Both the position numbers and the translations under genes were made by a program. Positions 3,442-21,150 of a DNA stretch of 21,150 nucleotides are shown here, piece by piece. The stretch comes from a virus. Its lineage: Duplodnaviria; Heunggongvirae; Uroviricota; Caudoviricetes. The notes below the pieces were generated by a model, which made no database searches, had not been told where the DNA came from, and saw only the letters and a list, made by a program, of their open reading frames with translations. The stretch is from the IMG/VR virus record IMGVR_UViG_2778261446_000001; one strand, written 5' to 3'. Each line of letters begins with the position of its first letter. The stretch's first letter is position 1.

Positions 3442-3457
3442 CATTATTGAAGTTTCA

Positions 3458-3733: not shown

Positions 3734-3761
3734 ATTATAATTACGAGTGATTAATCAACAA
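3734..3761 (-). promoter_or_regulatory. Candidate sigma70 promoter for the membrane-protein gene
   Basis: On the minus strand there is a perfect -10 TATAAT (plus coordinates 3739..3734) with TTGTTG 16 nt upstream (3761..3756), about 35 nt upstream of the ATG at 3697. Called by consensus matching only. Confidence 0.4.
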
Positions 3762-5147: not shown

Positions 5148-5149
5148 GC

Positions 5150-6039: not shown

Positions 6040-8027
6040 TAACTCACCCTCACCTGATTACTTCGCATGACCTGAGCATTTGCAGACTGTTGCCGACGTG
6101 CAACCTCATTACCGACAGCGTGCGGATCTCCGCCACCGTAAATGTGGTAAGTATTTTGCTGGTTAACCTCTGTCATTTTGCCACTAATTCCCGCCACGGC
6201 AGCCTTATTAATCAGCTCTCGAGAATAGATATTTCTTCCATTTTCATGCTGGATAATGCTGCTCATCAATGCTGACATGGTTTGCGGATCGCTCATATTC
6301 AGGGCAGCCCGGGGATCCACTCCCAGTCGTTGCGATACAGCCCTGATATACGCAGTTGTGTTGTTATTATCAGACGCAGGTGCCCAGGTAGAGATAATTT
6401 TCTCCACACTGTTTATTCCCCGTCCGGCGTACAGCATTAACTGACGAGCAAGAGCCCGTAATCCATCAAAAGCAGTTTCAAATCTGGCAAATCGCCCGCC
6501 CGGGCGTTCAAGAGAAGCCCCTGCCTGACCAGCAAAATTAAGGTTTCCCGGATTGTTATTCCGTTCTCCTCGTTTCGTAGCCTGTGCATATTGTTCCGGC
6601 TCATCATCACTAAACCAGCCGCGTACCGTCCGGCCCACACTGCGGGGATCGAATCCCCAGTGCTCTTTAATCCAGTCGGCAGTACTGTTAGCGCTGTCTG
6701 TAACCATCGGCATCGCTGACGGATTTTCGCTGCCCTGATTAAGTATCTGTTTGCCGATGCTGACGGCATCAGCCCAGCGGCCATCTTTGATAGCGTTGAG
6801 CAGGTCGGCGATCATGTTCAGCATTTTGCTGAATTCGCCCATCTGGTCGATGAAGTTGCTGAAATCCCACTTCAGGGACCATGATTTGGGGTCAATATTG
6901 AGCAGTTTCGCCAGCGCTTTCGCCAGTTCATTAACAGACCCTTTCAGGTCACGAACCATCTTCAGCGCGGCATCGACCTCCGGCTTCCACTTGCCCCAGT
7001 CAATCAGGCTGTCGCCGCCTTCCTTCCAGGTCTGATAGTCCTCCCACAGAAGGGCAATCCCCGCCGCCAGCGCGGTAATGAGGCCAATCGGCGACATCCA
7101 GAACGTACTGTTCAGAATGCGCAGCGCAATCGTCAGCGCGCCAAACAGCGAGATGAGCTCCCGCGTTTGCTTATCCAGCGATTGCCACCAGGTGATGAGG
7201 CCTGATGTTCCTTCAATCAGTCTGAAGAACAGCCGCCCGATAATATCCCCGAGCGCCAGAATGCCTTTTATGGCTTTCGTCAGGGTCTGCTCGATACGCG
7301 GGAAGTTGTCCAGGATATGGCGGCGCAGAGTGTCCAGCGAACCCGCAAGCCCACCCGCAAGATTAGAGCCGATTTTGTCACGGGCCATGCCTGCCATCGC
7401 GCCAAACTCACGCAGGGAGGTCATAAATTTGTTGGAGCTTCTGGCCGCCTCGTCAGCATTGAAGCCGATAGCTTTCGCCATTGCGCTGTACTGCCCGGAG
7501 AAACCACCCACACCCCGGCGCATAGCCATCAGGGTATTTTCGTCAATGCCCAGCATCTGCGCATACTGGTTAGCCCGGTAATACGGCATGCTGCTGAGTT
7601 TCTGTCCAACGCCCGTAAAGATAGCAGCCATGTCACGCATGTTACCGCTGGCATCACGGGTCTGTACGCCCAGGCGATTCAGAAAGCCTTCTGCTCCGGG
7701 ATTGTTACGAATAAACCGGGAGAGGCTTTCCAGAGAAGATCGCACAGCGTCCACACTGCCGCCAACCTGCGAAACCGCATAGCCAATAGACTGAATTCCC
7801 TGGACCGTCGCGCCGGTGCGCTGTGACGCCCAGTAAAGATTATCCAGGCCGGAGGCGATCTTAGCCGTGAAGGCCACCACGGACAGCGCAGCTCCTTCAA
7901 CAGCCAGCCCCATTTTGATGACATTTGCAGTTGTACCGGCGAGGACAGAACCGAACTTTTTCGCTCCTGCATCATCCACACTGAAGCCAAGCGAGACGAG
8001 GAAATCTTTAATAGTTTCAGCGTTCAT
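6039..8027 (-). CDS. Tail tape measure protein
   Basis: Long ORF (track 6039..8048 starts at a TTG). The preferred start is ATG at 8027, preceded by GGAGAGAGG. The protein is Ala/Gly/Leu-rich and helical, with a central hydrophobic segment (LITALAAGIALLW). It follows the chaperone and its frameshift extension, the canonical arrangement. Confidence 0.8.
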   Translation of the reverse strand: MNAETIKDFLVSLGFSVDDAGAKKFGSVLAGTTANVIKMGLAVEGAALSVVAFTAKIASGLDNLYWASQRTGATVQGIQSIGYAVSQVGGSVDAVRSSLESLSRFIRNNPGAEGFLNRLGVQTRDASGNMRDMAAIFTGVGQKLSSMPYYRANQYAQMLGIDENTLMAMRRGVGGFSGQYSAMAKAIGFNADEAARSSNKFMTSLREFGAMAGMARDKIGSNLAGGLAGSLDTLRRHILDNFPRIEQTLTKAIKGILALGDIIGRLFFRLIEGTSGLITWWQSLDKQTRELISLFGALTIALRILNSTFWMSPIGLITALAAGIALLWEDYQTWKEGGDSLIDWGKWKPEVDAALKMVRDLKGSVNELAKALAKLLNIDPKSWSLKWDFSNFIDQMGEFSKMLNMIADLLNAIKDGRWADAVSIGKQILNQGSENPSAMPMVTDSANSTADWIKEHWGFDPRSVGRTVRGWFSDDEPEQYAQATKRGERNNNPGNLNFAGQAGASLERPGGRFARFETAFDGLRALARQLMLYAGRGINSVEKIISTWAPASDNNNTTAYIRAVSQRLGVDPRAALNMSDPQTMSALMSSIIQHENGRNIYSRELINKAAVAGISGKMTEVNQQNTYHIYGGGDPHAVGNEVARRQQSANAQVMRSNQVRVS

Positions 8028-8657
8028 TATCCTCTCTCCATTTCTCAATGCGCCGCTGGTTATCCGCTTTTACCGCCAGGTGGTCATTCAAGAGAGCAAT
8101 GTCGTACAAATCGACAGAGCCATCTTTAAGTGCTGTATAAGGAATTAACCCGGCGTCAACCGGATTGAGAAGGTAGGACAGCCCGTCCGGCAGGCTGTTA
8201 AACGTCAGCCCTGTTGCAGGCTCTGCGTCGTGCTGGTAAGGGGTGTAGGCAAAAAATTTCCCAGCGAATCGGCGACCACCCGCGCCACCAGATGCAGCAT
8301 GACCAGCAAGTCAATATCATCAAACATCAGTTCGCCCTGGGTAAATACCGGAACCCATCCGTCCATATGACGCCGCGATACCACCGCAAGACAGGGATGA
8401 ATAATCGCACTGGTGTCATCTTCGGTCAGGGAAGACAGTTCCTCAGCGATACGCGGGAGCATGGTTTCAAACACCGGTTTTAACTGCTCGAATTTCACGG
8501 TGTCGATTTTGCCATCAGCAGGCAAACGGGAGCGAATGCTCCCGAAATCTGACATCATTCCTGCCAGCACCGGCAGAAGTTTGCGGGTCACTTTCAGCTG
8601 ATCAAAAACGCTGAGTTTTGCCGCGCGATATTTCACGCCTTTGATTTCGAATTCCAT
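8017..8657 (-). CDS. Tail assembly chaperone, -1 frameshifted long form (gpGT-like fusion)
   Basis: The zero frame ends at 8205. The -1 frame is open from the slippery tract (minus-strand A-AAT-TTT-TTG, plus coordinates 8250-8259) for 86 codons to a TGA at 8019..8017, just inside the tape measure start. Translated by hand (...FFAYTPYQHDAEPATGLTFNSLPDGLSY...IEKWREDNER*). There is no start codon in this frame, which is why it is missing from the ORF track. Confidence 0.5.
8205..8657 (-). CDS. Tail assembly chaperone (short form)
   Basis: 150-aa ORF with ATG at 8657 and GGGGAG about 10 nt upstream. Sits between the tube and tape measure genes, and is acidic, as tail chaperones typically are. 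Confidence 0.6.
   Translation of the reverse strand: MEFEIKGVKYRAAKLSVFDQLKVTRKLLPVLAGMMSDFGSIRSRLPADGKIDTVKFEQLKPVFETMLPRIAEELSSLTEDDTSAIIHPCLAVVSRRHMDGWVPVFTQGELMFDDIDLLVMLHLVARVVADSLGNFLPTPLTSTTQSLQQG
8250..8259 (-). other. Candidate -1 ribosomal slippery site in the chaperone gene
   Basis: Minus-strand sequence gga-aat-ttt-ttg contains the overlapping heptamers A_AAT_TTT and T_TTT_TTG. The -1 frame downstream of it is open to the tape measure start. Confidence 0.45.
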
Positions 8658-8660
8658 GTA

Positions 8661-9101
8661 TTAAAACTCCCCGAGAACCTGGTCAATCTTGCCGCAGTCA
8701 AACACCCACGGCATCGTATTACCGGTTTTAGCGTTGGCATTATCCGGTTGTTTCTGGAACGCAACACTACGTGCCGTGATGATGTCGCCGCTGACCTTGT
8801 TTCGGATCACAATAACGTTATTCCCCCATGTGGCAGAAGACTGGCTCTGTGCGTTATACGCCAGCGACAATTTTTTATTTGTCGGTGATGTCTTCAGAAG
8901 GTTAACGGTAATCGTCCCGCTTTTATCTGCATGGAGACTGTGCATCACTTCGCCATCAGAACCGATGGTCATGGTGTTTTTAGGACCGCCCATCGCAACC
9001 ACAATCCCCTCTTCAGAACTTGCAGAACCGTACCCGAGGTCAATCGAACCGGTCGGCCCGGTCAGCGTCGCAGTGACATCCATAAAAGAATAGGTAGACA
9101 T
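8661..9101 (-). CDS. Tail tube protein
   Basis: 146-aa ORF with ATG at 9101 and AAGGGGAAG upstream. Immediately downstream of the sheath gene and upstream of the chaperone; size is typical of myovirus tube proteins. Confidence 0.6.
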   Translation of the reverse strand: MSTYSFMDVTATLTGPTGSIDLGYGSASSEEGIVVAMGGPKNTMTIGSDGEVMHSLHADKSGTITVNLLKTSPTNKKLSLAYNAQSQSSATWGNNVIVIRNKVSGDIITARSVAFQKQPDNANAKTGNTMPWVFDCGKIDQVLGEF

Positions 9102-9111
9102 TCACTTCCCC

Positions 9112-10257
9112 TTAGCGAACAACGTTAATCTGTACGTCAGCGTAATGAACCGCGCCTGCAAGTTTTATTGCAGCCTGAATCACCGGAGCCTTACGGGCTT
9201 CACGTTCTGATTGTGCCTGTTCATCCAGCGGCTGGGCGTATACGTAATAACCTTTGGGCAGTGTGTCACCTGATGACAACTGACCAAGGTCGCCCCCGTT
9301 CCATACGCCCGGAGCAATCAGTCCATTCTGAACGGCCTGATCCAGTGATTTTTCAACATTTGATAACAGTCGGGTAATACCGGCTTCAGTCTGGGGAACT
9401 TTCGTGGTGCTGGTATAAAGCAGGTTATAGAGGTTGGTCTGCACATAATTCTGTAACCAGTCCAGGCCGTGGCGTTCATCAAAGAAATCGCCGTTAGCCA
9501 TCACTCCCTGCTGGAGGATAGCTGTATCATTCTGGTAGTACACGAACACATTGCAGTTTTTTGCATCAAGTGCCGATGCCTGGCTGACTGTCAGTGTTTC
9601 ATACCCGACACCCGGCTCCTGCTTAAACTTGAGCGTAATCGCGGTATTACTGCCATTGAAATTAACCGTGAATGCCCGGCCAAATGCAGATAACGCAGCG
9701 TATTTATTACCCGATGAATATTGAATAAAACTGCGTGAATATCCGGCGGTTTTCAGTTTTGATGCCAAATCATCGCTGGATGCAGTCTGCAGGCATTTCT
9801 CATCGCTTGTCGTAATCGCCAGAATACGGCTTACAGAAGAGGATTCGATCGCCGCAGCCACTTTCAGCCAGTCTGCATCCGGAATATCTTCATCGTCTGC
9901 AATCCCCAGCCCATACCATGAAGTATAATCGAGCATGGCATTCACAGCCTGCTCCAGCGTCTCAGGCGTGGCCTGTTCGCTGTCTCCCTTCGTTTTCACC
10001 CAACGACCAACAAAAACCTCCTGAGGTTTCGGTGATTGAGAGAAAAACACCTGCGCAGCCTTATATTCTGGTGATTCCACGCCAAAATCTTTTCCAATAT
10101 CTTCCGCGGCAGAATAACGGCGAATGCGCTCACTTACCGGAATGATTGTGGACGGGCCGAGAATGAGTAATGCACCAAAATTTCGCCCTGATGCTGCACG
10201 CGGCGACATGATCACATCAACATTAACAACGTTTGATACAGGCAAGCCCTGTGCCAT
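9112..10257 (-). CDS. Contractile tail sheath protein (DUF3383-like from memory)
   Basis: 381-aa ORF with ATG at 10257 and GGAG about 10 nt upstream. It is the first gene of the sheath-tube-chaperone-tape measure block; size and order are typical of short sheath proteins. Confidence 0.7.
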
Positions 10258-10260
10258 AGC

Positions 10261-10824
10261 TTAATCTCCGAAAAAGATGACTGGTGCTTCCACCAGCGAT
10301 TTAATACCGTACTCGCGCACAATCTTCCGGCGCAGACGCACCGTCATATCGTAGCGGCGGACCCATTGCTGATTAATAAGTTCAGGGAAGGGAGTCAGAC
10401 CTGTGTAATCGCCAAGAGACAGCCCCAGCGCATTCAGTGCTGCGTTGTTCTGCGGTACAGATATACCGTCACGAAACCGGGACGCATACACCATCCCCGC
10501 CGGACCATAAAACGAAGCCATACACTCAATCGTTTCATGCCGCCAGAGCTGAGAGCCATCATCGGTCTGTCTGGTGAATGCCGGACTGTCATCACCTGAC
10601 CATCCGATAACCCCAAACGCACACCAGTTCGTTTCAGCCGGTAGCAGTGGCGGTTGCTCTTTCTGCCAGCGCGGACGAACCATCCCGGCAGACAGACCGG
10701 AAACGTTACGCATCCACTGGCTTAACAGCCTGTCGAGCGCTTCGTCATAATCCGGATCGCCACTGGTTGGTATTAACCATCCGCGCTCTGTACTGGTGTT
10801 ATTGCTCAACCGGAGTTCCCCCAT
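10261..10824 (-). CDS. Hypothetical virion protein (possible tail terminator / neck)
   Basis: The track ORF starts at TTG 10827; an ATG follows at 10824. Lies between the head-completion genes and the sheath gene and overlaps the upstream gene by about 26 nt. No recognisable family. Confidence 0.35.
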   Translation of the reverse strand: MGELRLSNNTSTERGWLIPTSGDPDYDEALDRLLSQWMRNVSGLSAGMVRPRWQKEQPPLLPAETNWCAFGVIGWSGDDSPAFTRQTDDGSQLWRHETIECMASFYGPAGMVYASRFRDGISVPQNNAALNALGLSLGDYTGLTPFPELINQQWVRRYDMTVRLRRKIVREYGIKSLVEAPVIFFGD

Positions 10825-11188
10825 CAAACGGCATCAACTCACAATGCGCCTGAACGAATCCGGCCCCATAAGCTGTATACGGGTCGACGAAGGTCACACG
10901 ATAATCACGGCCCTGATACGTCACGATATCGGCATCACGCCCAGTCTGTCCCTGCGTCAGTCGCTCAGTCGTCACAATCAGAATTGCACCGCTGATTACC
11001 TGCCCTGCCTGCATACGGCGGTTTTCCAGAGAGCGATCAACAGTTACGACTCCGGCAAACTGCTTTTTAACTTCACTGTCGCTACCGATCCCGTCCTCAT
11101 CCACCGTTTGCACACGCCGTGTTACCCACAAATTGAAGTCGCAAAAATCGGGGTCAAAAAGCACATCTGTTACATCAAGAGTCGGCAT
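10799..11188 (-). CDS. Hypothetical virion protein (possible tail completion)
   Basis: 129-aa ORF with ATG at 11188 and GAGGA 8 nt upstream. Located in the head-tail joining region. Confidence 0.4.
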   Translation of the reverse strand: MPTLDVTDVLFDPDFCDFNLWVTRRVQTVDEDGIGSDSEVKKQFAGVVTVDRSLENRRMQAGQVISGAILIVTTERLTQGQTGRDADIVTYQGRDYRVTFVDPYTAYGAGFVQAHCELMPFDGGTPVEQ

Positions 11189-11729
11189 CTTTATTCCTCA
11201 CAACATGGGTAATGGCTCTGCGATATTGCCCGGTGTCGATTAGCGGTTTCACCAGATCGGTTCCGGGGGACTCGCCAGCAGCGCGTCGGGCAAGCTCCGC
11301 TTTCGCCCCTTTACGCCCTCGACGCGCGCGGGCTTCAACGGTGCTATCAGCAAGCGGTGTAAAGCCGGTAATAGTCATGTAACGCCTGACGCCATTAGCG
11401 GCCAGCGTTCCGGCACGGTTGAGCGCTCTTTCCGCACCCGCCGCATTACCATCAAGCGCAGCCTGCGCCGCTGCTTTGAGCTGCGGCACTGTCTGTTCTT
11501 CTACCGATTTAACGCCGGGGACCAGGTGAGGTCGTAGCGGGATGTTTTGCGCCGGTGAGCCGTATTCGTTGAGGTAACCGATCCCGGCATTACCAAACGG
11601 AACATCCTCACGCTCGCTGTCTGCTTCCGGGATACCCACCAGCACTTCTTTTTTATTGATGGATTTGAGCGCATCCAGAATGGCCTGAGCGTTATCCACC
11701 CTCGTTGTTACACCGCTTTTGAAACTCAT
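11175..11729 (-). CDS. Putative head closure / neck protein
   Basis: 184-aa ORF with ATG at 11729 overlapping the upstream stop (ATGA). Position is in the connector gene block after the capsid gene. Confidence 0.4.
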
Positions 11730-12133
11730 AGCTGGCGACCACCTGCACCGAACATCGTGATCAACTGATAAAATTCAGCGCCATATCGGGTGTTATTCCA
11801 GAAGCCTGCGTCAGGGTTTAGCGTCGCGCTGGTGTCATAGCTGACGCTTACCTTGTCAACGGACTTGGAGGATTGAACACCATTGGTTGAACCGCCCGGG
11901 CCGCCAACCAGCATTGCCCGACTATCTGCCGCCCATAGCGTCATGTAGTGAGCCACGAACAACTCGGCAAAGTACGGAAACAACTTTTTTCCGGTGACGT
12001 TTTCGCTCAGCAGTTCATCGGCCAGATTCAGACGAAACTGGATTTGCGCTTCGGGATATTTGGCAGGGTCAGCAAACTGCGGGAAGTCGCGGCGAAAATC
12101 ACTTACCGCTGGCAGACTTTGATTCTTTGGCAT
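11726..12133 (-). CDS. Putative head-tail connector protein (DUF4054-like from memory)
   Basis: 135-aa ORF with ATG at 12133 and GAGG 8 nt upstream. Its start overlaps the 3' end of the preceding small gene by 35 nt. Confidence 0.45.
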
Positions 12134-12320
12134 TTTTTACCTCGTTACGCGCGTCTGTGGCTTTGCCAACGGATACCTCCGCGTGCGCACGAGTGAACCA
12201 GTGCGTGGCAACTTCTTCCTCCACAGCATGACGGCCTTTAACAAACTCGCGCCGTGAACCGTCGGGAAGCGTGAGCACAAACGGGGTATGTACGTGTATT
12301 ACTGCATTATTTTTTGCCAT
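12099..12320 (-). CDS. Small hypothetical protein downstream of major capsid gene
   Basis: 73-aa ORF with ATG at 12320 and AAGGA 8 nt upstream. Follows the hairpin after the capsid gene. Confidence 0.4.
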
Positions 12321-12333
12321 CGGGTCATCCTTA

Positions 12334-12355
12334 ATGGCCCCCGCCAGGGGGCCAT
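12334..12355 (-). promoter_or_regulatory. GC-rich hairpin immediately downstream of major capsid gene
   Basis: Perfect inverted repeat AATGGCCCCC-GCCA-GGGGGCCATT (9-bp stem, 4-nt loop) located 8 nt after the capsid stop codon. No U-tract follows on the coding strand, so it is not a canonical intrinsic terminator. Confidence 0.5.
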
Positions 12356-12362
12356 GTGGCTG

Positions 12363-13304
12363 TTAAATGCCATCAACGTACGAAATGGTTTCTTTGTACA
12401 CTGGCTCAACCGCACCCAGCTTGCCGTAGTAGGTCGCAATCTGATACAGACCACGATACTGGATAGGAACGCTCTGCAACGGCACCAGCGGATAGCGCAC
12501 GTATTTCTTGTCGTTGGTGTACGCAACCATGCGATCCTTATCCCCCACACCACGGCCTTTCAGCCATTTAACCGCGCGGATATTCAGCGGAACACCGTTC
12601 TGGTGATAGCTGATGGTGTTGGTCTGAAGATACGTCAACAGGGACTGGTTCCCCGCAGATGAAACGATGATGCTGGACAACAGAGCAAACTGCTCAGGCG
12701 GGATCAGCAAATCACGCGGAACCACAGAGTAACCAGAAGCGGCCCACGCATCAGACAGCACCTGGTTAATGCTTGCGCGGATTTCGTCCGGTGTTGAGGT
12801 TGCCCACGTTTTGGCAGCGTTGTTGACAGGAACACCGTTCAGGGTAACAAGACCTTTCAGGTTTAATGCGGAATCGCCAACATACACCTGTTCATCGTTA
12901 TCCATCTGCCATTTCAGTTGCATCCCGTCATACTTCTGCGTATCAATCGGGCGTCCGACCTGCTGAGCAGCCTGCAATTCTATGACCGTCCAGCCAAGCT
13001 CCATCCCCCACAGGTTCAGCGGGTTACCGGATTTGCCGATATCCACGTTTACGCCAGCAATAGCGGTTGAGTCTTTGCCTACCCAGTTTTTGCCATTCGG
13101 ATTTGCGCCAGTACCCGCAGCGGCGAAGCTGGTATTCGTCCAGCTGGAAATGTCATCTGCGATAGAGACATCTTCACGCAACTGAATATCGCGGGTCCAT
13201 GTGTACCCCACCAGTGGCAGGTTCAGAGTCTGGTCGAGTCGCTCCAGCTCTCCGATGAGAAAGGCACCAGAGCTGTCAACGGTTGCCTGATCAAAAGTAA
13301 TCAT
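12363..13304 (-). CDS. Major capsid protein (HK97-fold; DUF2184 / encapsulin-like from memory)
   Basis: 313-aa ORF with ATG at 13304 and AAGGA 9 nt upstream. It is the largest head gene after the scaffold-like gene and is followed by a strong hairpin, as expected for a highly expressed capsid gene. Confidence 0.65.
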   Translation of the reverse strand: MITFDQATVDSSGAFLIGELERLDQTLNLPLVGYTWTRDIQLREDVSIADDISSWTNTSFAAAGTGANPNGKNWVGKDSTAIAGVNVDIGKSGNPLNLWGMELGWTVIELQAAQQVGRPIDTQKYDGMQLKWQMDNDEQVYVGDSALNLKGLVTLNGVPVNNAAKTWATSTPDEIRASINQVLSDAWAASGYSVVPRDLLIPPEQFALLSSIIVSSAGNQSLLTYLQTNTISYHQNGVPLNIRAVKWLKGRGVGDKDRMVAYTNDKKYVRYPLVPLQSVPIQYRGLYQIATYYGKLGAVEPVYKETISYVDGI

Positions 13305-13315
13305 TCGTCTGTTCC

Positions 13316-13819
13316 TTAAATCTTCCAGGAAATTTCTGCATTGCCGTTAGCATCACCGGCACCTGTGAATTCAGCGTTGGTCAGCACCACGTTTTTGCCA
13401 CTGACTGACGTGGCCATGAATCCACCCAGCGGCACTTTGATGGATCCATCAGTGGAGACGACAACGTATACCGGGTCGCCTTTTTTGATGGTGCTGGCAT
13501 CAAAATCAGAACCGAGATTAACGGTCACGTAGCCACGCTTCATTGCGTCGCCCGGGAAGTTCTTGCCACTCCCCACCTGGCGAACCATGTCCGGCTGCGA
13601 TGTGGTCGGATAAGGGCGCACATAGATCCCCTTCACCTTGTCTGCGGTATCACCATCTGCCAGCGGTACGAAAAAACCGTCAGCATCGTATTTACCAGCC
13701 AGCCCATAGGCAGCAAAGGCGTTATCGGATTTAAGGACCACCGGTTCGACGGTTAAGTCCTGCGGGCGAGAGATAGCCCCGGCAATGCCAACAGGCATCC
13801 GGTACAGATATGCAGTCAT
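13316..13819 (-). CDS. Putative head accessory / decoration protein
   Basis: 167-aa ORF with ATG at 13819 and AAGGA 8 nt upstream. Lies between the scaffold-like gene and the major capsid gene. Function assigned from position only. Confidence 0.35.
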   Translation of the reverse strand: MTAYLYRMPVGIAGAISRPQDLTVEPVVLKSDNAFAAYGLAGKYDADGFFVPLADGDTADKVKGIYVRPYPTTSQPDMVRQVGSGKNFPGDAMKRGYVTVNLGSDFDASTIKKGDPVYVVVSTDGSIKVPLGGFMATSVSGKNVVLTNAEFTGAGDANGNAEISWKI

Positions 13820-13823
13820 TGGA

Positions 13824-15044
13824 TTATCCTTTGCGGTTAGACCAGAATTCGGCGTTTTGTTTGTTCAGGGAAGCGATGCTGGTCATGCCCATATTTTGGC
13901 GTTGTGCATCGCCCATGGTGGTACGGGTGTTTCGCCCTTTGGCAATCTCTGACACGGCATTAAACGCCATGTTGACCGATTGTTTCGGTAATTTGCGGAT
14001 ATCCGCATCACCGACTATCTGGCGAACCAGCGTTTTGTCAGCAGAAGCCAGAACCTCGCGTTTGAACGCGGTCGGTTTCATCTTACGGCTCAGATCGATA
14101 CCCGGAACGATAACTTCGGCACGCCAGGCTGAGTCACCAGTAATCGTGGTTTCCTCTTCATCGTCCTCGCCGTCACCGGTCGGATTATCGTCAGGCTTAT
14201 TGTCGTTATCGCCCGTCGCATTTCCTTCCAGCTTAGCCAGCAGGGCTTTCAGTAATGTTTTGAGGTCATCATCACTGTCGCCGGTTGGATCTCCACCCAT
14301 CTCTGGTGCTTTGTCCGGTAGTGGTTGCTGCGGGGACAGGTTGATGTTGAGATTAACGCCCTGCGGCAAATCCCCCTCATCTCCTGTAACCGATGCGGGA
14401 GCCGACTCCACCAGTTCGTTCATGGTGTCGGCATCTCCTGTCTTGATGGCTGCACGCATGCGGTTCCACCAGTTTTTCTTTTGATTTGCCATTGTGTCTC
14501 TGTCTCCAATTGCACAACGATTTCCGGCTCTGCCTTTGGGGACAAGAGCCACATGGTTTCCGGTAATATCGACCTGCTCGGCTTTACCTGGCTCGGTCTG
14601 CTCGTACTCCGCGTCATAGCCGCACGACACTTCACGCAGGCCATCTTCGATAAGCTGAATGGCGTTTTCGTCTTTGACGATAAGGTCAGCCAGCATCAAA
14701 TCAGACTGCTCACCCGTCCCGCGCCGGACATTCTGGAGGTGCCCGACAGCAAGCTCTTTCCAGTTCTCGGGATTTACCAGCCGCACATTCCCGTTTTCAT
14801 CTTCAGGATGCAGGATCGTGATGCTCATCCCTTCGAATGAGGCGAGCGTGGCCGGATGGAATACCTGCTCAGGAGAACGCGTTACGACTATCTCACCGAG
14901 CTTGTCGGGTTTGAGGTTTGGCAGATCGGCAGCGCCGTAGAGCTGCTTACCCGTTCGACCTATCGGCACGTCTTTGCACAGCAGCGAGCCGTCAGCCAGC
15001 TGATAGCGGGTTTCCCCCAGCCTGGTATTGAAAAAATATTTCAT
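13824..15044 (-). CDS. Putative head scaffolding / prohead maturation protein (DUF2213-like from memory)
   Basis: 406-aa ORF with ATG at 15044. Contains a long acidic low-complexity tract (GDSDDD...GDNDNKPDDNPTGDGEDDEEETT), typical of scaffold proteins. Located between the MuF-like gene and the capsid genes. Confidence 0.5.
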   Translation of the reverse strand: MKYFFNTRLGETRYQLADGSLLCKDVPIGRTGKQLYGAADLPNLKPDKLGEIVVTRSPEQVFHPATLASFEGMSITILHPEDENGNVRLVNPENWKELAVGHLQNVRRGTGEQSDLMLADLIVKDENAIQLIEDGLREVSCGYDAEYEQTEPGKAEQVDITGNHVALVPKGRAGNRCAIGDRDTMANQKKNWWNRMRAAIKTGDADTMNELVESAPASVTGDEGDLPQGVNLNINLSPQQPLPDKAPEMGGDPTGDSDDDLKTLLKALLAKLEGNATGDNDNKPDDNPTGDGEDDEEETTITGDSAWRAEVIVPGIDLSRKMKPTAFKREVLASADKTLVRQIVGDADIRKLPKQSVNMAFNAVSEIAKGRNTRTTMGDAQRQNMGMTSIASLNKQNAEFWSNRKG

Positions 15045-15058
15045 GGTTTACCTGCGAT

Positions 15059-15832
15059 TCAGGCGAGATAAGAATGAGGGTTGGGAAAAACGATTTCTTT
15101 ATAACAGCGACAATTCGGGAGCTCGCCAGCGTGACCGGTCATGCCATCAAGCGTTGGAGGTTTGCCCCATTCGACAAACTTACCTTCCATCTCCCGATGA
15201 GAATGCCGGACGTCGCCATCTTCGGCTGTACGCCAGATATAACCATTCGAGCCGATTGACAGCGCACGCGCCTGATCCAGCGCGCCGGTTGCACGTCCAA
15301 GCTCGGTACGGGCGATAAGGTTCGCTCGTGAGCGTGACACGTCACCGGACGCTGCTATCTCTTTCGCGAATGGTTCAGCGCGGCCACCAGACACAACGGC
15401 CTCGATGGCCTTGTTCTGAATGTCATACACCCGATCGGCGGCCTCAAGAGGCAGTGACTTGATGTACTTAATTTGCTCGGCGACGATGGATTTCATCACC
15501 TGGCCTACCGGGGCGCGGTCGACCATGTTGCGCAGCTCTGAACTGATGTTCCGGCTGTGTTGACGCCACTGCTTTTCATTCTGGCGCGCTATGTCTGCGG
15601 TGAAGTTCTCAGCTACCTTCGTCGCCCAGGGGGTGATGATTTCACTGTAGCGTTCCAGCGCCTCAATAATTTCCGTGATACTGTCATTTGAACCATCGTA
15701 GCGACCATTTACGATGTCCCCGACCGCCCGCGCTATCTGCCGTAGGCTCGTTCGATATCGGATCTCCGCCTGGCGACTCTGGCGGTTTGTCGCCAAGTTC
15801 GCCGATGCCTGGCGGCGCTTCGTCTTCGGCAT
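15059..15832 (-). CDS. Head morphogenesis protein (Mu F / SPP1 gp7-like)
   Basis: 257-aa ORF with ATG at 15832 and GAGGA 10 nt upstream. Position directly after the portal gene is characteristic. The start overlaps the portal 3' end by 149 nt, so the true start is uncertain. Confidence 0.6.
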   Translation of the reverse strand: MPKTKRRQASANLATNRQSRQAEIRYRTSLRQIARAVGDIVNGRYDGSNDSITEIIEALERYSEIITPWATKVAENFTADIARQNEKQWRQHSRNISSELRNMVDRAPVGQVMKSIVAEQIKYIKSLPLEAADRVYDIQNKAIEAVVSGGRAEPFAKEIAASGDVSRSRANLIARTELGRATGALDQARALSIGSNGYIWRTAEDGDVRHSHREMEGKFVEWGKPPTLDGMTGHAGELPNCRCYKEIVFPNPHSYLA

Positions 15833-17150
15833 TCTCTATGTCCTCGTCGGTAATGGATGCCCCGATGCCGGTTACGTCAGAATTTTCGCGCAAATCGGTC
15901 ATAGCGGCTTTCAGTGTCATCAGACCATCACCCAGCGCCGTACTGATTGCGTTGGTGGTGTTTACGGCCACCGTTGAGCGGTCAACGTCAGACATTTGCC
16001 ATAGGGGGTTAAACTCAAACGTGAAATCGTCCGGCAGCGGCTTACCGAGTTCCGAGCGGTGCATAATGTCCAGTATCCGGCGTATCGGCAGCCGTAAGCG
16101 GCGCTCCTGCAATGAGCTCACCCGGTCGTAATAGTTGGCGAGGTCTGCGTCACCAGTAGAGAAGCCTTTCGGGGATTGACCGAACAGTCGCACCAGCGGG
16201 ATACCAACGGCACCGCTGATCTGCTCAGCGAACTGCGAAAGAATGTCATCCAGACCGCTGAAGCTGTACTGGTGGGTTTCGAACTTATCCCGCGAGTCCA
16301 TGAGCGTCATGCCTTCATTGCTCTGGAACTGGCGGATCAGGTCGATGTTCTTCAGCAGCGCCTCGAACGCCGGGCCGCCAAGCGCGATAAGCTCGCGCAG
16401 CTTCTCCACGCTGTAGGTACGCAGATGTGCTTTGTAGACCAGCTGCGCCGCGCCGACAGTGGCGCTGTCGAACGCAGTAAGCCGATCCCAGATACGCTCT
16501 ACAACCGACATTCCCCATTCGTTTTCGGTCATCTTCTGCTGGAATGGCAGCGTCACCCCGTCGAAGCGAATCAGGCGACTGTGATGGATGCGCCAGGCTG
16601 GAATGCCCGTGGCAGTGGTCACCACATCGTAAAACTCAGGTTTGCCGAGATCTGGCCCCATCTCTTTAATGCGGCGGGTCAGCACCGGGTTAATCATCCA
16701 GCGGTCGAGCGGGAGAATGCCCTTAAACTTGCCTTCTCCAATGGTTTCGAGCCGCAGCGGGGTCATTGGTGCCTGCCCCTCAATCATGATGAAGCCAACC
16801 GCACCGCCATAGAGACGCGACCATTTCAGCACGTCATTCAGCGCATCCCAGATTTGCAACTCATCCAGTTGTGATTCGAGAATGCCGCGATCTTTTGCAT
16901 CAATTTCCGAAGTGATGCGAATGCCTTTGCGGGTCATATCATCCGGGATAGCGTCGACCGCTTCTCCGATAATCCAGGACGAACGATAGGACCATTCCAC
17001 CAGCATGCGGTTACGACTGGTGAAATTAGCCCGATAGGTGGATGCTGAGTGCTGGTTAGGTGTCTGCATCCCCACGCGGGCAACAAAGTTCTCATAGCCA
17101 TCAGCGGTGGCCTGTGCCGTTCGCCGCGTGGCTTGTTTGTTTCGTGCCAT
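15684..17150 (-). CDS. Portal protein (DUF1073-like from memory)
   Basis: 488-aa ORF with ATG at 17150 overlapping the large-terminase stop (ATGA). Directly downstream of the large terminase. The C-terminus is acidic and low-complexity. Confidence 0.75.
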   Translation of the reverse strand: MARNKQATRRTAQATADGYENFVARVGMQTPNQHSASTYRANFTSRNRMLVEWSYRSSWIIGEAVDAIPDDMTRKGIRITSEIDAKDRGILESQLDELQIWDALNDVLKWSRLYGGAVGFIMIEGQAPMTPLRLETIGEGKFKGILPLDRWMINPVLTRRIKEMGPDLGKPEFYDVVTTATGIPAWRIHHSRLIRFDGVTLPFQQKMTENEWGMSVVERIWDRLTAFDSATVGAAQLVYKAHLRTYSVEKLRELIALGGPAFEALLKNIDLIRQFQSNEGMTLMDSRDKFETHQYSFSGLDDILSQFAEQISGAVGIPLVRLFGQSPKGFSTGDADLANYYDRVSSLQERRLRLPIRRILDIMHRSELGKPLPDDFTFEFNPLWQMSDVDRSTVAVNTTNAISTALGDGLMTLKAAMTDLRENSDVTGIGASITDEDIENAEDEAPPGIGELGDKPPESPGGDPISNEPTADSAGGRGHRKWSLRWFK

Positions 17151-18772
17151 CAGGCCTGTCTCCCTAGCAGCTCCCAGATGTTCAGGGCTGAATTCATTGG
17201 CGCGTAGCTGATCATCACCGAGTCGGCAAGGTTTGGCGACCGGGTTCCATCAGGCTGTTTATCAATAACGATTTTTCCCACACCATTAATGGAATAGGTC
17301 GGCTGCGAAAGCTCGATGATGAGTTTATCTTTGAGTGCCATGCTACTGCTGATTGAGATGATTTCGTCCGGGTTGTAATCCATACCTTCAACCACGGCGC
17401 GCCAGGTATTCTGAAAAAGTTTACGTAACCGCCACCAGCTCTGGGCTTTGGCGTTAGCGAAGAAGTCCTTGTTCAGGCGGGCGGCTTGCCCGTTGTCCCC
17501 GCGAACAGCTTCATCATCCGGATCAAATACCGCGCCACTACCTCGAAACGGTGTGGCGAGTATTGACGGTCGGCGCGCAGCGTTACGCAGTTCGTTGATA
17601 GCGCGTGCATCGCCGCGAACGCCAGCGCCCAGCCCGTCCTCGTCAAAGCGAAACTCTTCGAGGTTGTCCTGTTCGCAAAAACCGAAGACCTTCTCGACGG
17701 ACTGATAAATGTCGCTGCCCACACCAGACCATTCCCGCACATTTTCCAGGAGGAAGCCATGACGGGTGGAAAAGGCATTTTTGTCCCTGCCTTCATCAGC
17801 GACATCCATCGCGCCAAGTCGTTTGCCTGTTGGCTGGATACCCAGTCTGATATGCGCATCAACGGCAGCCTGTACCCATTCGGATGGAATCAGGACGCCT
17901 TCCGCTGATGCGCTGTAGTTCAGATCAAGTTCCTGTGCCACCACCACCGGATTATCGATTTTCTCGCATTCCCTGCGATACCACTCTTCATCCTTGCGAG
18001 GATCATCCCGCCAGTGGAATGTGAATACCGGTATCTTCCCGCCATGACGCTTCTGAGCGAACGGGTTAGCCATGCCGTTAACTGAACTCAGGTCGATACG
18101 GCAACGCGTCGTTTGTGACAACGCCGCATCAATCAGCAGAGGACGCTGAAGGAATGCAGCCTCATCAACCAGATAAAGCGTGGTACGGTCACCACGACCA
18201 ATATTATCGCCAGCCTCGCCTTTGATAACGGCACCAGTTTCAGGAAACTCAACACGCATATATGGCGCGTGCTTCTTCTCGCTCCACGAACCGCGAAACT
18301 CTACAGGTAGTGTTTCCACGAACTTGCGCGCCTTCCAGAACAATGCTTTCGGGTCACCGGTGCTGTCGACGTATTCCTCTTTACGGGAGCCGAAACCGAT
18401 AACCATTTCTTTGTTGAAGAGACAAAGCGAGCATGCCAGCCCGATCGCGGTCCAACTGAGCCCCATTTCACGGGATTTTTCGGTAATACCATTCTCCCGA
18501 TTACCCCAGCGTTCCATAATCCAGTGGATCCACTCCTCCTGCTTAGGGAAGAGTAAAAACGGAATGGTCACCGGCAGGCCATAATCAATATTACGCGGGT
18601 CCGTTGTCATGCCCCAGTCGATGATGAACTGAGCCGGATTGGTTCGGTAAAACTGTTTTAGTGCAGGCAATATTTCAGGATTCTGGCGAATGCGCTGTAG
18701 GCGTTCCATCCGCCATTCAAAAACTATCTGGTAATCAGGATGTTTAAAATCGAAGGGGAATGGTAACGGCAT
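17150..18772 (-). CDS. Terminase large subunit
   Basis: 540-aa ORF with ATG at 18772, 5 nt after the small-terminase stop. Size and position between the small terminase and portal support the call. Confidence 0.8.
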
Positions 18773-18774
18773 AC

Positions 18775-19329
18775 TTAGCCCATCATTTTTCTATACGCCT
18801 CTGCAGCCTGCTCCGGCGTTAAGTTGGTAATTTCTGTTCTGACTGGTCCTCCGTCAGCACCAGTCACTTCATTTTTGACATTGTCTTTAAACGCCTGAAC
18901 AGAAACATGACGCCCGAGCAACTCAAGGTTTTTAACCTTATCAGGCCATTTGATTTTCTTCAGGAGAGCAGCACTATCTGCTGATGCCATCTCGACGACA
19001 TCCATTCCTGATAGCGTTGTACGCCACACCTTAGGCCAGTCTTTAATCGGCTTCAGTTCGCCATTGGCAAGCAGAATGTCAAGCACGTCCATCTGATCGA
19101 TTTCAGTCAGCCGTCGCAATACATAGGCAGCGTCTATACCTACCTCTTCATTGCGTTCAGCCTTTAGCTCAGCAATGCGATCTGCTATGTCAGGTTTTGA
19201 CAGGTTCTCGCTACCAGTGGCGCGAGCAGTTTTCTCGCTGTAACCCGCCCTGATAGCTGCCTGAGTGGCGTTTAAATCTTTCAGGTACTCACGGGCAAAC
19301 AGCTCTTGTTTGTCGGTGAGCTTTGCCAT
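18775..19329 (-). CDS. Terminase small subunit (Terminase_2-type)
   Basis: 184-aa ORF with ATG at 19329 and GGAG about 10 nt upstream. The N-terminus [16 protein letters not shown]...[11 protein letters not shown] matches the conserved small-terminase helix-turn-helix motif. Confidence 0.75.
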
Positions 19330-19356
19330 TATTTGTGCTCCGTTTATCCGTTAAAA

Positions 19357-19423
19357 GGGATATCAGTTAAGTTATCCCGTGTAGGGTATAAGCCATTGTC
19401 GAGACCACTCATTGAATGGTCTC
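19357..19423. repeat. Two hairpin-forming inverted repeats in the terminase leader
   Basis: GGGATA-(10 nt)-TATCCC at 19357-19378 and GAGACCA-(9 nt)-TGGTCTC at 19401-19423, both inside the ~300 bp non-coding gap upstream of the small terminase gene. Confidence 0.5.
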
Positions 19424-19631
19424 TGCAATAACCGATGTCTTTCCATCAGTCCGCCACCACAAAGAATCTTTTTTGCCATAAGGCAGGAGGTTCATCTTTC
19501 AGTGGCTGCCAGTGTTATTTCCCCACTTACTGGCTTGGGTTGTTTCGCTGTACTGCCGTTAATTAGTGACCAGAAATTAACTCCGGTTTCATTATCAAGC
19601 CCACCCGTAGATAGGCTTTGTAATGACATCT

Positions 19632-20156
19632 TCAATTAATCAGCAGTTCAGGCTGTGTCACCTGCAAGATGTATTCATGCTCGACAGCCAGGACACGCTT
19701 CTCTTTCTTCCGTTCGTTCATTAACCGACTGCCGATCGTACCTTTCAGCTTTGAGCGTGTTTCTTTGATGGCGTAGCGGTGCTGCATTTCTTCGCCAATT
19801 GCCATGCGGCGGCTCAGTTGCTCTGCCATCCAGTTGAATGCCGCGATATAGCTCTCCTTGATTGCCGCAGCAGCTTTCCCGGTGAACCCCATCACAACCA
19901 TGATCCAGCCATCTTTCGTCAGGCTGTACATCGGGCGAACCTTGCCCTGCTCATCGATATAATCAGCCGACGCAAAATTGCGTTGGCTAAACTCACGCGA
20001 GCAATCAGCCTTAACCTGCTCGATTTTCCTGAGAACATCACCGTGTCGCTTGCCGAAGTACTTGGCAATTTTTCTGGATGTGGTAACGACCTCTCCGTTT
20101 TTGGCTTGCACCATTTCTCGGAAGTCGAAGGCTGGAATAACTGAATGATTATTCAT
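19632..20156 (-). CDS. rha: Rha-family phage regulatory protein
   Basis: The track ORF begins at GTG 20192; the preferred start is ATG 20156 (MNNHSVIP...) with AAGG upstream. Contains the motifs TTSRKIAKYFGKRHGDVLRKIE and YSLTKDGWIMVVMGFTGKAAAAIKESYIAAFNWM, characteristic of the Phage_pRha family. Confidence 0.75.
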   Translation of the reverse strand: MNNHSVIPAFDFREMVQAKNGEVVTTSRKIAKYFGKRHGDVLRKIEQVKADCSREFSQRNFASADYIDEQGKVRPMYSLTKDGWIMVVMGFTGKAAAAIKESYIAAFNWMAEQLSRRMAIGEEMQHRYAIKETRSKLKGTIGSRLMNERKKEKRVLAVEHEYILQVTQPELLIN

Positions 20157-20298
20157 AGCGTCTTTACCTTTTAGAAAGTGAGCCTGTCTCACAGAAAAGC
20201 CGCCCGAGAGAGGTCGCCACCTATAACGGCATTTCTCAGGCTCGCTTACTGAAAGGCTCTCGTTAATATGCGCGTGAGATGCGCGTTTACTGCGGACA

Positions 20299-20325
20299 TA
20301 AAAAAGCCCCGCTTTTCGCGAGGCT
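20299..20325 (-). terminator. Rho-independent terminator downstream of the Rz/Rz1 lysis genes
   Basis: Minus-strand stem AGCCTCGC / GCGGGGCT (8 bp with one mismatch, 5-nt loop) followed by UUUUUU. It lies about 30 nt after the Rz stop codon. Confidence 0.55.
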
Positions 20326-20356
20326 CATTAAATGGACTTTGTGGTTTGCAAAAAAA

Positions 20357-20794
20357 TTATTTCAGGCACTGAGTCCTGATGTACTCCTGCAGGTAGTTAA
20401 CCTGCGCGGTTATCCTGTCGATTCCACTTCGGAGACGGTAATAATTGAGTTCAGCATCTGCTGTAAGTCTTGGGCTTTCTCCATCGCCCATGCTGCTGGC
20501 TCCGGTCGTTGACTTTGCACAGGTGGCGGCGACTTGCAGGCGCTTACGACCAGCAGAAACATCAGCACGGAGACTTTCGATAGTCGCGTTAGCATCAGCA
20601 AGCTCCTTTGTGTATCTGGCGTCGAGTTCTGCTACATCACGTTGACGCTTCTGCATGTCAGCGATGATGGATGTGGCTTTATCACGCTGATCTTTGTAGG
20701 CGATGGCGTTATCACGGTAATGATTAACAGCCCATGACAGACAGACGATGATGCAGATAACCAGAGCGGAGATAATCGCGGTGACTCTGCTCAT
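20357..20794 (-). CDS. Rz: Spanin, inner-membrane subunit (i-spanin Rz)
   Basis: 145-aa ORF. The N-terminus [31 protein letters not shown] is essentially identical to lambda Rz. Its ATG overlaps the R stop (ATGA), and it has an N-terminal transmembrane helix followed by a coiled-coil-like periplasmic domain. Confidence 0.9.
20410..20595 (-). CDS. Rz1: Spanin, outer-membrane lipoprotein subunit (o-spanin Rz1), embedded in Rz in the +1 frame
   Basis: The track ORF starts at TTG 20601; the ATG is at 20595. It has a signal peptide with lipobox (LLVVSAC) and a Pro-rich mature region ([16 protein letters not shown]), and lies entirely inside Rz, as in lambda. Confidence 0.75.
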
Positions 20795-21150
20795 ACCTCA
20801 ATCTCTCTGACCGTTCCGCCAGCCTCTTTGAATTTTGCAATCAGGCTGTCAGCCTTATGCTCGAACTGACCATAACCAGCGCCCGGCAGTGAAGCCCAGA
20901 TATTGCTGCAACGGTCAATTGCCTGACGAATATCACCACGATCAATCATCGGCAAAGCGCCACGCTCCTTAATCTGCTGCAATGCCACAGCGTCCTGGCT
21001 TTTCGGAGAGAAGTCTTTCAGGCCAAGCTGCTTACGGTAGGCATCCCACCAACGGGAAAGAAGCTGGTAGCGTCCGGCGGCTGTTGATTTGAGTTTGGGG
21101 TTTAGCGTGACAAGTTTGCGAGGGTGATCGGAGTAATCAGTGAATAGCTC
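20791..21150 (-). CDS. R: Endolysin R, lambda-type lytic transglycosylase (5' end outside window)
   Basis: The frame is open from the window edge: [119 protein letters not shown]. This is near-identical to the C-terminal ~119 residues of lambda R as I recall it. The track shows only the portion from an internal GTG at 20988. Confidence 0.9.

Follow-up and report, generated by a model that had tools for sequence, protein, structure and literature searches.

Organization of the window

The window analyzed here, i.e., the whole stretch of 21,150 nt, encodes all of its genes on the minus strand, and near-identical annotated relatives are known for every protein of the analyzed region. Read in the coding direction, it opens with the 3' part of an endolysin gene and a pair of overlapping spanin genes, continues through a terminator-like hairpin, a Rha-family gene and a conserved spacer, and passes into a small terminase gene followed by a long module of predicted packaging, head and contractile-tail genes (Table 1).

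Table 1. Features identified in the window, listed in coding order.
Feature	Position	Strand	Basis or remark
R 3' part, lambda R-type endolysin gene	20791..21150	-	Truncated by the window end; 119 aa present
Rz, inner-membrane spanin subunit, 145 aa, HK97/P22 allele type	20357..20794	-	Pfam Phage_lysis, E = 2.6e-36
bsq7 counterpart in Rz, codons ~24-39	20678..20725	-	Aligns with Sf6 misc_feature
Rz1, outer-membrane lipoprotein spanin subunit, 61 aa	20410..20595	-	Pfam Rz1, E = 2.2e-20
Terminator-like hairpin 3' of Rz	20304..20326	-	Pattern scan
Rha-family regulator gene, 174 aa from ATG	19632..20156	-	Pfam Phage_pRha, E = 2.2e-28
Conserved spacer, from cassette slot to first packaging gene	19338..19631	-	Predicted hairpin chain
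Small terminase (TerS; Terminase_2), hybrid, 184 residues	18775..19329	-	Pfam, E = 5e-40
Packaging/head/contractile-tail module	63..18772	-	TerL, DUF1073 portal, protease/scaffold, major capsid, sheath, probable tube, tape measure, baseplate

Lysis genes

The N-terminal 39 residues of R lie beyond the window, and the stop codon of R overlaps the start of Rz (ATGA). A Pfam search with the 119-aa R fragment returned no match, and the identity of R was therefore judged by direct comparison with lambda R, with which the part inside the window shares 117 of 119 residues; R of mEpX2 and R of HK97 are each identical to it over all 119. On this criterion the gene can be assigned as a lambda R-type endolysin (annotated in RefSeq as glycoside hydrolase family 24) with predicted lytic transglycosylase activity.

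Rz1 is nested wholly within Rz in the +1 frame, and its mature part is preceded by ...LLVVSAC.... The membrane anchor and Phage_lysis domain of Rz, the nested +1 o-spanin frame, and the lipoprotein signal with its Cys are together the hallmarks of an embedded two-component spanin, as which Rz/Rz1 can be classed. Rz1 is identical to that of mEpX2 (61/61) and nearly so to that of P22 (58/61), and shares 24 of 58 residues (41%) with that of lambda. The "HK97" o-spanin family lists mEpX2, HK97, P22, and Sf6 (Kongari et al., 2018; PMC6139136), and Rz1 of the window is a member of this family rather than of the lambda Rz1 type.

The identity step within Rz

Alignment with lambda (NC_001416) gave 96.7% nucleotide identity over window positions 21150-20692 and 58.5% over the remainder of Rz from ~20691 onward. 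The maximum chi-square procedure placed the breakpoint at 20691 (chi2 = 175, a value reached in 0 of 2000 permutations), with the drop from ~97% to ~58% completed in about 15 nt and a 21-nt indel at the step. In the protein, residues 1-32 of Rz match lambda at 31 of 32 positions and residues 33 to the end at 58 of 112, such that the periplasmic domain (52% aa), like Rz1, is of a different allele from that of lambda. The preliminary description had noted this near-identity of R and of the first ~30 residues of Rz to lambda, and the divergence of the rest of Rz and of Rz1, and both observations hold; the pattern is far beyond chance, and only the wording "lambda-identical" slightly overstates an identity of 96.7%.

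A sharp break of this kind is seen against lambda and phiv205-1, and none against HK97 or mEpX2. Across R, Rz, and Rz1, identity is uniform to HK97 (97.1%) and to mEpX2 (98.7%), and the maximum chi-square test is not significant for either phage. Rz shares 142 of 145 residues with mEpX2, from which the window differs by 0 nt over 21150-20745; 8 of the 10 mismatches to this phage are concentrated in 20744-20681. The right-hand Rz/Rz1 allele recurs in 177 phage records, among them those of P22, Sf6, HK97, and Stx phages, with 161 of the 177 covering at least 80% of the query, and the right half of Rz is 96-99% identical across many phages. About 350 phage records in total match the R-Rz region. 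These comparisons show that the R-Rz-Rz1 block is a lysis cassette of the HK97/mEpX2 type, rather than lambda sequence joined to new DNA, and that the joint in Rz is old and widespread, neither recent nor particular to this prophage. Thus, the recombination point proposed earlier exists relative to lambda, and not as a recent or element-specific event: divergence from lambda is non-uniform, as that proposal anticipated, whereas identity to HK97 and mEpX2 is uniform.

The position of the step coincides with the 3' edge of a patch of Rz that aligns with a feature annotated in the RefSeq record of Shigella phage Sf6 (NC_005344, 37312-37359) as "bsq7; boundary sequence" (91.7% identical). The Sf6 feature occupies the same position in Rz, its flanks likewise switch on either side in different phages, and we found no substantive difference between it and the patch in the window. 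The boundary-sequence concept reportedly originated with the work of Clark et al. in 2001 on phage HK620. The patch is conserved in all six phages compared (87.5-97.9% identity), and exists in two variants, with the window resembling phiv205-1 and HK97, and mEpX2 resembling lambda. Its flanks behave differently: lambda and phiv205-1 diverge to the right of it (52-54% identity, with phiv205-1, which has the lambda-type distal half of Rz, at 52%), whereas P22 diverges to the left, where its R is unrelated (40% identity in the final 60 nt) and its Rz is 73% identical at the 5' end, yet is 96% identical to the right. We therefore regard the patch as a lambdoid boundary sequence by its position and flanking pattern, with a putative role in promoting recombination, in keeping with the general idea of such sequences (PMC3029335). 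Its conservation could also stem simply from constraint on the part of Rz just past the membrane anchor, without the patch serving as a recombination site.

Differences in evolutionary rate, with a constrained R and Rz anchor adjoining a rapidly evolving distal Rz and Rz1 whose surfaces co-evolve, might in principle give a similar contrast with lambda in a gene that had never recombined; the Rz/Rz1 families are very diverse (PMC6139136), and the conserved part codes for the transmembrane segment. However, rate differences cannot account for the step given that the pattern is reversed in P22, and neither the abruptness of the drop, with an indel at its edge, nor the near-identity of the right half of Rz among many phages is consistent with rapid evolution. 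We consider this explanation extremely unlikely.

Terminator and Rha cassette

The terminator-like hairpin lies inside a stretch of ~75 nt (20325-20251) that is common to sequences of the HK97/mEpX2 type and of the phiv205-1 type. The match to HK97 and mEpX2 (from the window end, terminator region included; 96-97.6% nucleotide identity in the segment map, 97-98.7% in the comparison of the cassettes) stops at 20251, and that to phiv205-1 begins at 20325; this stretch can be taken as the left edge of a variable cassette slot. The slot is occupied by the Rha gene in this element and by a KilA-N gene in HK97 and mEpX2, and lambda has no Rha gene. The Rha protein scores 99.1 bits against PF09669 (gathering cut-off 29.9), from which its function as a regulator is predicted. 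A sigma-70 scan for a promoter of its own returned none on the coding strand, with a total below the shuffled expectation. From 20325 to 19321, covering terminator, Rha, and spacer, the window is 98.2% identical to phiv205-1 (Lederbergvirus), the virion genes of which are those of a P22-like podovirus.

Small terminase and the boundary of the virion module

The small terminase (137.8 bits against PF03592, cut-off 26.1) contains one joint and adjoins another. The first falls within ~10 nt of its start (19338-19329), where lambdoid identity stops between the GGAG ribosome-binding site and the ATG; a relative in IMG/VR (L057) combines this TerS start with the other RBS-spacer variant. The second lies inside the gene, at ~18965, where the nucleotide match to vB_EcoM-611R5 begins (98.5%). 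Consistent with this, residues 1-120 share 64 of 120 positions with TerS of 611R5 (53% aa) and residues 121-184 share 62 of 64. The matches to SEN34 and Omnitron start at ~18813 and ~18828, respectively, and these phages have only the last ~30 residues of TerS in common with the window. The best match of the N-terminal part (76%) is Erwinia phage Midgardsormr38. Residues 1 to ~120 are of one origin, and residues ~121-184 belong to the type of module found in 611R5 and SEN34. Inverted repeats are located at 18808-18905, within the gene.

It follows from these positions that the border between lambdoid sequence and virion module falls at the TerS start codon, with a further joint inside TerS, instead of in Rz, which had been proposed as the junction between lambda lysis genes and a myovirus module. 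A recent fusion of lambda lysis genes to foreign DNA, specific to this prophage and with the Rz crossover as the lambda/myovirus-type border, would account for the sharp step against lambda at ~20691 and for the non-lambda virion genes downstream. However, beyond the joint in Rz the sequence remains typically lambdoid for another ~1.35 kb (terminator, Rha cassette, spacer), HK97 and mEpX2 carry the same three lysis genes at 97-98.7% without a step, the right half recurs in the many phage records given above, and the joint itself is the annotated Sf6 boundary sequence; such a fusion is very unlikely.

Packaging and contractile-tail module

Downstream of TerS, family matches include Phage_portal_3, tape measure, and Baseplate_J; a DUF3383 protein matches the PHROG tail sheath family (7e-136), and a protein of the KPP10_Orf10/DUF3277 family occupies the position of the tail tube gene. 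Thus, as the preliminary description had stated, the lysis genes are followed by Rha, a Terminase_2 small terminase, and a contractile-tail structural module, here seen to have sheath, tube and baseplate genes, and the region is mosaic with a virion module of a non-lambda, contractile-tail type as judged from its genes. The closest virion modules, matching window positions 63-18965, are those of the Escherichia phages vB_EcoM-611R5, -683R1, -606R2, and -689R2; the module is collinear with 611R5 at 94-97% identity (one piece at 88%), and a collinear match at 72-88% is found in SEN34, a temperate lambda-like phage of Salmonella. This virion module was thus already known from lambda-like phages, and SEN34 particles have myovirus morphology with contractile tails by electron microscopy (PMC5261728). 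We infer a contractile tail for this element from homology to SEN34 and from the sheath and baseplate families, the particles having been seen for SEN34 and the window providing the genes. Of 5426 complete E. coli genomes, 390 contain the TerL-portal region.

HK97 and mEpX2 (Hendrixvirinae) are siphoviruses, and have an ORF80-like gene and an HNH endonuclease where this element has TerS; lambda has a cos-type Nu1/A terminase and a siphovirus tail. Members of the 611R5 group have an R that is only 85% identical, a different Rz, a different N-terminal TerS domain, and neither Rha nor the spacer. In SEN34, too, the small terminase is immediately preceded by Q, holin, endolysin, and Rz, but the lysis genes differ and the Rha cassette is absent.

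Host prophage and distribution

Two E. coli genomes, those of S163-2 and TUM9754, contain prophages that match the window at 100% identity. Along these prophages the genes run torI, abc, ssb, rad52, kil, ral, N, cI, cro, cII, rep, toprim, nin, Q, followed by S, R, Rz, Rha, TerS, and the later genes as far as intS; the N-cI-cro-cII early order and the Q-S-R-Rz late order are as in lambda. By gene order and layout, and by the RefSeq annotation of the identical prophage of S163-2, the prophage can be placed among the lambdoid phages (lambda supercluster). Its Q and S genes are also 97-98% identical to those of HK97 and mEpX2. No tRNA was detected in scans of the window or of the intS-proximal end of the prophage. 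An IS1 element interrupts Q in each of the two genomes, and this copy may therefore no longer express late genes at all.

The whole-prophage comparison that had been suggested earlier bore out the lambdoid early and late order; of the early half, 61% is shared with the podovirus vB_EcoP-720R6 (at 97.2% identity) and 47% with Sf101 and mEp043. In Sf101, mEp043, HK633, and mEpX2, 9-15 pieces match the early region at 93.9-97.5% identity. By contrast, of its 16.4 kb only 71 bases align with SEN34 and 98 with 611R5: the early region of SEN34 is unrelated at the nucleotide level, and that of the 611R5 group, which has genes for a DNA polymerase and a helicase, is not of the P22/lambda kind. In ICTV practice, a genus corresponds to ~70% nucleotide similarity over the full length. 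With similarity to SEN34 (Brunovirus SEN34) confined to the virion half (72-88%), the prophage falls outside the genus Brunovirus.

E. coli genomes with lambdoid lysis genes have them at a median of 2 places, which can confuse assemblers, although nothing specific in the data points to a chimera of reads from two prophages. Two independent complete genomes, one from China and one from Japan, carry the stretch of 2451 nt at 100% identity, five others match it at 92-94% over 84-93% of its length, and the same gene order is found in IMG/VR contigs, making an assembly artifact vanishingly unlikely. The full combination was found in only 9 E. coli genomes, in 2 of them in identical form.

A patchwork handover from lysis to virion genes

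Very probably, the window records the handover from lysis to virion genes in the single late operon of a lambdoid prophage, with the break in Rz being the inherited bsq7 joint. It is a patchwork in which five or more segments can be told apart, the closest relatives of each being found in different known phages. The first segment, the HK97/mEpX2-type cassette, combines a lambda-type R and Rz transmembrane segment with a P22/HK97-type Rz periplasmic domain and Rz1; the second comprises the terminator, Rha cassette, and ~300-nt spacer as in phiv205-1; the third, the N-terminal two thirds of the small terminase, of different origin; and the fourth and fifth, the TerS C-terminal tail and the whole packaging/head/contractile-tail module of the SEN34/vB_EcoM-611R5 type.

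The map of segments, the joints and their distribution among phages are shown by the comparisons above, whereas the recombination mechanism and the functional reasoning that follow are inferred. Homologous recombination at bsq7 would reassort the left side (R type, Rz anchor) with the right side (Rz periplasmic domain, Rz1). Because the joint lies upstream of Rz1, which is entirely to its right, the interacting parts of the spanin would always travel together. The joint inside TerS would keep the TerL-binding tail with its own TerL while the remainder of TerS is swapped. Illegitimate recombination followed by selection would likewise put joints at gene and domain borders, and static sequence hides the mechanism.

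Exchange joints thus occur at a conserved intragenic sequence, a start codon, and a domain border. The element adds to the documented examples in which lambdoid control and lysis genes work together with any one of the three tail types; it is a patchwork E. coli prophage of an ordinary kind, and of little importance except for the catalogue. The comparison does carry a caution, in that an identity break against lambda alone can mimic a fresh event though the joint is old and widespread.

The conserved spacer before the packaging genes

The spacer is common to lambdoid phages of the sipho-, podo- and myovirus types (89-100% identity over the best matching stretch) and is present in 207 phage records, with P22 and HK97 among its carriers; it is identical to that of phiv205-1 at 304 of 304 nt, and the match to HK97 and mEpX2 (19633-19321) is at 94.6-95.4%. 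It has an unusually stable predicted fold (MFE z = -5.9), stronger on the sense strand. An Rfam 15 scan of 18700-21150, with E up to 1, returned no covariance-model match. In a covariation analysis of the hairpins on 97 sequences, which are too alike for a decisive outcome, 99.7% of cells were paired, with no significant excess over shuffle controls and no pair altered on both sides. It is a tentative and rather doubtful suggestion that the spacer may act in the late transcripts of lambdoid phages as a structured RNA element not described before. Such an element could serve in processing or stability, or as a translational leader for the next packaging gene, and its hairpin units may also mark places of module exchange; if functional, it would add modestly to what is known of late genes in lambdoid phages.

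Two minor observations concern the same region. Of the hairpins A-G, A alone has diverged copies, in Omnitron and SEN34, in which changes on both sides were seen in a comparison by eye of three sequences. PGAP annotated no gene in the spacer of this element, and in phiv205-1 a 45-aa hypothetical protein is annotated there.

Lysis genes and the identity break in Rz

The preliminary description had R (endolysin) and the start of Rz (inner-membrane spanin subunit) near-identical to lambda, with the distal part of Rz and Rz1 (outer-membrane spanin subunit) diverged, and this is borne out. In a global alignment with lambda (NC_001416), positions 21150-20692 are 96.7% identical and the remainder of Rz 58.5% identical, with a 21-nt indel at the identity step; protein identity is 117/119 for R and 31/32 for Rz residues 1-32, versus 58/112 from Rz residue 33 to the end and 24/58 for Rz1. 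Divergence across R-Rz is not uniform: the maximum chi-square breakpoint versus lambda is 20691 (175; reached by 0 of 2000 permutations). However, the proposal that lambda lysis genes were joined to new sequence inside Rz stands only for the comparison with lambda. R-Rz is 97.1% identical to coliphage HK97 and 98.7% to coliphage mEpX2 at the nucleotide level, and a breakpoint scan of R-Rz against these two phages gave no significant statistic and no break; protein identity to mEpX2 is 119/119 (R), 142/145 (Rz), and 61/61 (Rz1). The block is therefore an HK97/mEpX2-type lysis cassette, and a fusion of lambda to something new is rejected for it. The identity break in Rz is real and was correctly observed, yet it is ordinary. 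The right-hand Rz allele (20690-20357) occurs in 177 phage records, including P22, Sf6, HK97, HK75, BTP1, and Stx phages; 161 of these match over 80% or more of the query, and 154 are at 95-99% identity.

In the RefSeq record of Sf6, Rz contains a misc_feature ("bsq7; boundary sequence") that aligns to 20725-20678, and the step versus lambda coincides with its 3' edge. Identity of bsq7 to the window is 87.5-97.9% in all six phages compared. To its left P22 differs (unrelated endolysin, Rz 5' end 73% identical), whereas to its right it is lambda and phiv205-1 (a P22-like podovirus) that differ (52-54% identity); this three-way pattern, with divergence on opposite sides, excludes simple rate differences as the source of the break. 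The bsq7 patch also shows micro-mosaicism, with eight of the ten R-Rz mismatches to mEpX2 lying within 20744-20681, mEpX2 carrying the lambda variant at seven of these eight sites, and the 406 nt upstream containing 0 mismatches. Boundary sequences were reportedly first described by Clark et al. in 2001. Homologous exchange in lambdoid phages via such short conserved sequences is an established idea (summarized in PMC3029335; Clark et al. is reference 38 of PMC5261728), and the Rz joint is a previously catalogued lambdoid boundary. Rz1 starts downstream of the joint, so it would have been exchanged together with the periplasmic domain of Rz as a single unit, which fits the existence of separate "HK97" and "Lambda" o-spanin families within one i-spanin family (PMC6139136).

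Features of the window; every gene lies on the minus strand
Feature	Position	Strand	Remark
R, last 119 codons	from 21150 downward	-	stop codon overlaps Rz ATG
Rz	20794-20357	-	
Rz1	20595-20410	-	embedded in Rz
Terminator-like hairpin	20326-20304	-	
Rha-family gene	20156-19632	-	
Spacer between Rha gene and small terminase, ~300 nt	19338-19631		no genes annotated by PGAP
Small terminase (TerS, Terminase_2)	19329-18775	-	
TerL (large terminase)	18772-17150	-	
Portal, protease/scaffold, major capsid, tail sheath, chaperone, tape measure, baseplate J, related genes			after TerL
KPP10_Orf10/DUF3277 protein			tube position
Inverted repeat, 13-nt arms	18808-18820 / 18890-18902		
Inverted repeat, 11-nt arms	18840-18850 / 18856-18866		
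Inverted repeat, 9-nt arms	18831-18839 / 18897-18905		

Edge of the lambdoid sequence in the small-terminase gene

Segment-by-segment BLAST found 21150-20251 to be HK97/mEpX2-like and 20325-19321, spanning the terminator, Rha, and the spacer, to be 98.2% identical to phiv205-1; the match to HK97 and mEpX2, which have a KilA-N gene in the slot held here by Rha, resumes at 19633-19321 (94-95%). Identity to all three phages ends between the GGAG ribosome-binding site and the TerS ATG, where an ORF80-like gene begins in those phages with ATGGCAGAG, whereas the window has ATGGCAAAG. An IMG/VR relative combines the other RBS-spacer variant with the window-type TerS start. The nucleotide match to vB_EcoM-611R5 (611R5) begins at 18965; TerS is 53% identical to its 611R5 counterpart over residues 1-120 and matches it at 62/64 over residues 121-184, while the TerS of Salmonella phage SEN34 and of Omnitron have only the last ~30 residues in common with that of the window. 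The best match to the N-terminal part is from an Erwinia phage, at no more than 76% identity. The small terminase is thus a hybrid gene, and the module junction, which had been placed in Rz, lies at and within it; the region is mosaic, as had been claimed, but lambdoid-shared sequence runs as far as the TerS start.

Nested inverted repeats (18808-18905) lie inside the 3' end of the gene, where its sequence is conserved with 611R5, SEN34, and Omnitron. The folding z is -4.26 for 18790-18960 (171 nt, sense strand) and similar on both strands for the 150-nt window 18800-18949 (-4.67 and -4.34). These repeats could be linked to packaging-site recognition or to TerL translational coupling.

Virion module and whole prophage

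The Rha gene, Terminase_2 small terminase, and contractile-tail-type genes (tail sheath, tube-position protein, baseplate J) noted earlier do follow the lysis genes. Collinearity with window 18965-63 extends to 611R5 at 94-97% (one piece 88%) and to SEN34 at 72-88%. Of 5426 complete E. coli genomes, 390 contain the TerL-portal region. SEN34, with myovirus morphology by electron microscopy, has been described as a relative of lambda-like phages and as the prototype for a new cluster of lambda type (PMC5261728); a lambdoid element with myovirus morphology is therefore of a known kind.

Two stretches without a 611R5 match, in the tape-measure/transglycosylase gene (6606-6980) and the spike gene (2704-2934), have flanks 94-97% identical and are local replacements within structural genes. 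Between baseplate genes, in a low-GC stretch (3441-3764; 38% in 3501-4000), sits a small DUF4282 gene (3458-3697) that the 611R5 module, collinear in other respects, lacks and that SEN34 matches only in part; it looks like an accessory gene inserted into the tail module. The portal gene (15684-17150; Pfam Phage_portal_3, 7.7e-105; DUF1073 in RefSeq) has truncated homologues, 96.6% identical, in E. coli B strains (REL606, BL21), which shows that their defective prophage has a virion module of this type. RefSeq labels the B-strain match "anti-CBASS protein Acb1 family protein", probably an annotation inconsistency.

A 2451-nt stretch around the joints recurs at 100% identity in E. coli S163-2 (pangolin, China) and TUM9754 (Japan), where the prophage reads torI, abc, ssb, rad52, kil, ral, N, cI, cro, cII, replication genes, nin, Q, S, R, Rz, Rha, TerS, tail genes, acyltransferase, dinI, intS. 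The whole-prophage comparison matches the early half, a typical lambdoid mosaic, to podovirus vB_EcoP-720R6 (61% coverage, 97.2% identity) and to Sf101 and mEp043 (47% coverage), in 13-15 pieces each, and the virion half to 611R5 and SEN34. The similarity of the early half to the early regions of SEN34 and 611R5 is near zero, with 71 and 98 bases, respectively, aligned out of 16.4 kb. Only nine complete E. coli genomes hold the full combination with at least 80% of the query covered. By the whole-genome criterion the prophage falls outside genus Brunovirus. It reassorts known parts in a different way and joins a known group, that of lambdoid prophages whose contractile-tail virion genes are of the SEN34 type.

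Outside the window, upstream of S, Q is split by IS1A at the same place in both genomes (L004 17743-19143; L013 3743-5143), so this prophage copy is probably defective in late gene expression; common descent, or transfer that came after the insertion, probably accounts for its presence in both strains.

Proposed late operon and routes of exchange

The gene order is that of one late operon. From what is known of lambda and P22, a late promoter under Q antitermination would read S, R, and Rz/Rz1, then the terminator after Rz, and read-through would continue into the cassette slot, the spacer, and the packaging and assembly genes. Lysis genes target the host envelope independently of virion type, so every virion module can follow any lysis cassette. 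The joints are seen directly in the alignments; we infer that homologous exchange acted where sequence is conserved (bsq7, the terminator region, and the spacer), and that illegitimate or microhomology events followed by selection produced those at the start codon and the TerS domain border.

Predicted structure of the spacer

The spacer (minus strand) is predicted to fold into a chain of stable hairpins, with an MFE of -99.1 kcal/mol versus -71.3 +/- 4.7 in shuffled sequences (z = -5.9). Scanned in 150-nt windows, the sense strand scores z values of -5 to -6 and the opposite strand -1.4 to -4.7, with the coding neighbours mostly at ~0 to -2. It occurs in 207 phage records and has no Rfam match. 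When the window is aligned with 96 unique homologues, 99.7% of stem cells are paired, each of the 19 additional pair types is one-sided (one pair, for example, is G-U 35, A-U 25, G-C 1), and covariation did not exceed shuffle controls and is thus unproven. Hairpin A (19626-19589) has a UACG loop, and its diverged copies in Omnitron and SEN34 have a UUCG loop with some pairs changed on both sides. Homologues break off at recurring points between predicted hairpins. We record the spacer structure as a lead rather than as established.

At alignment columns 55-82 (~19586-19560), the window carries a version that lacks the GNRA hairpin, and many homologues carry an alternative with a CUGG-GNRA-CCAG hairpin that overlaps an alternative CCGGAAU/AUUCUGG hairpin; the GNRA loop is always GCAA, GUAA, or GAAA.
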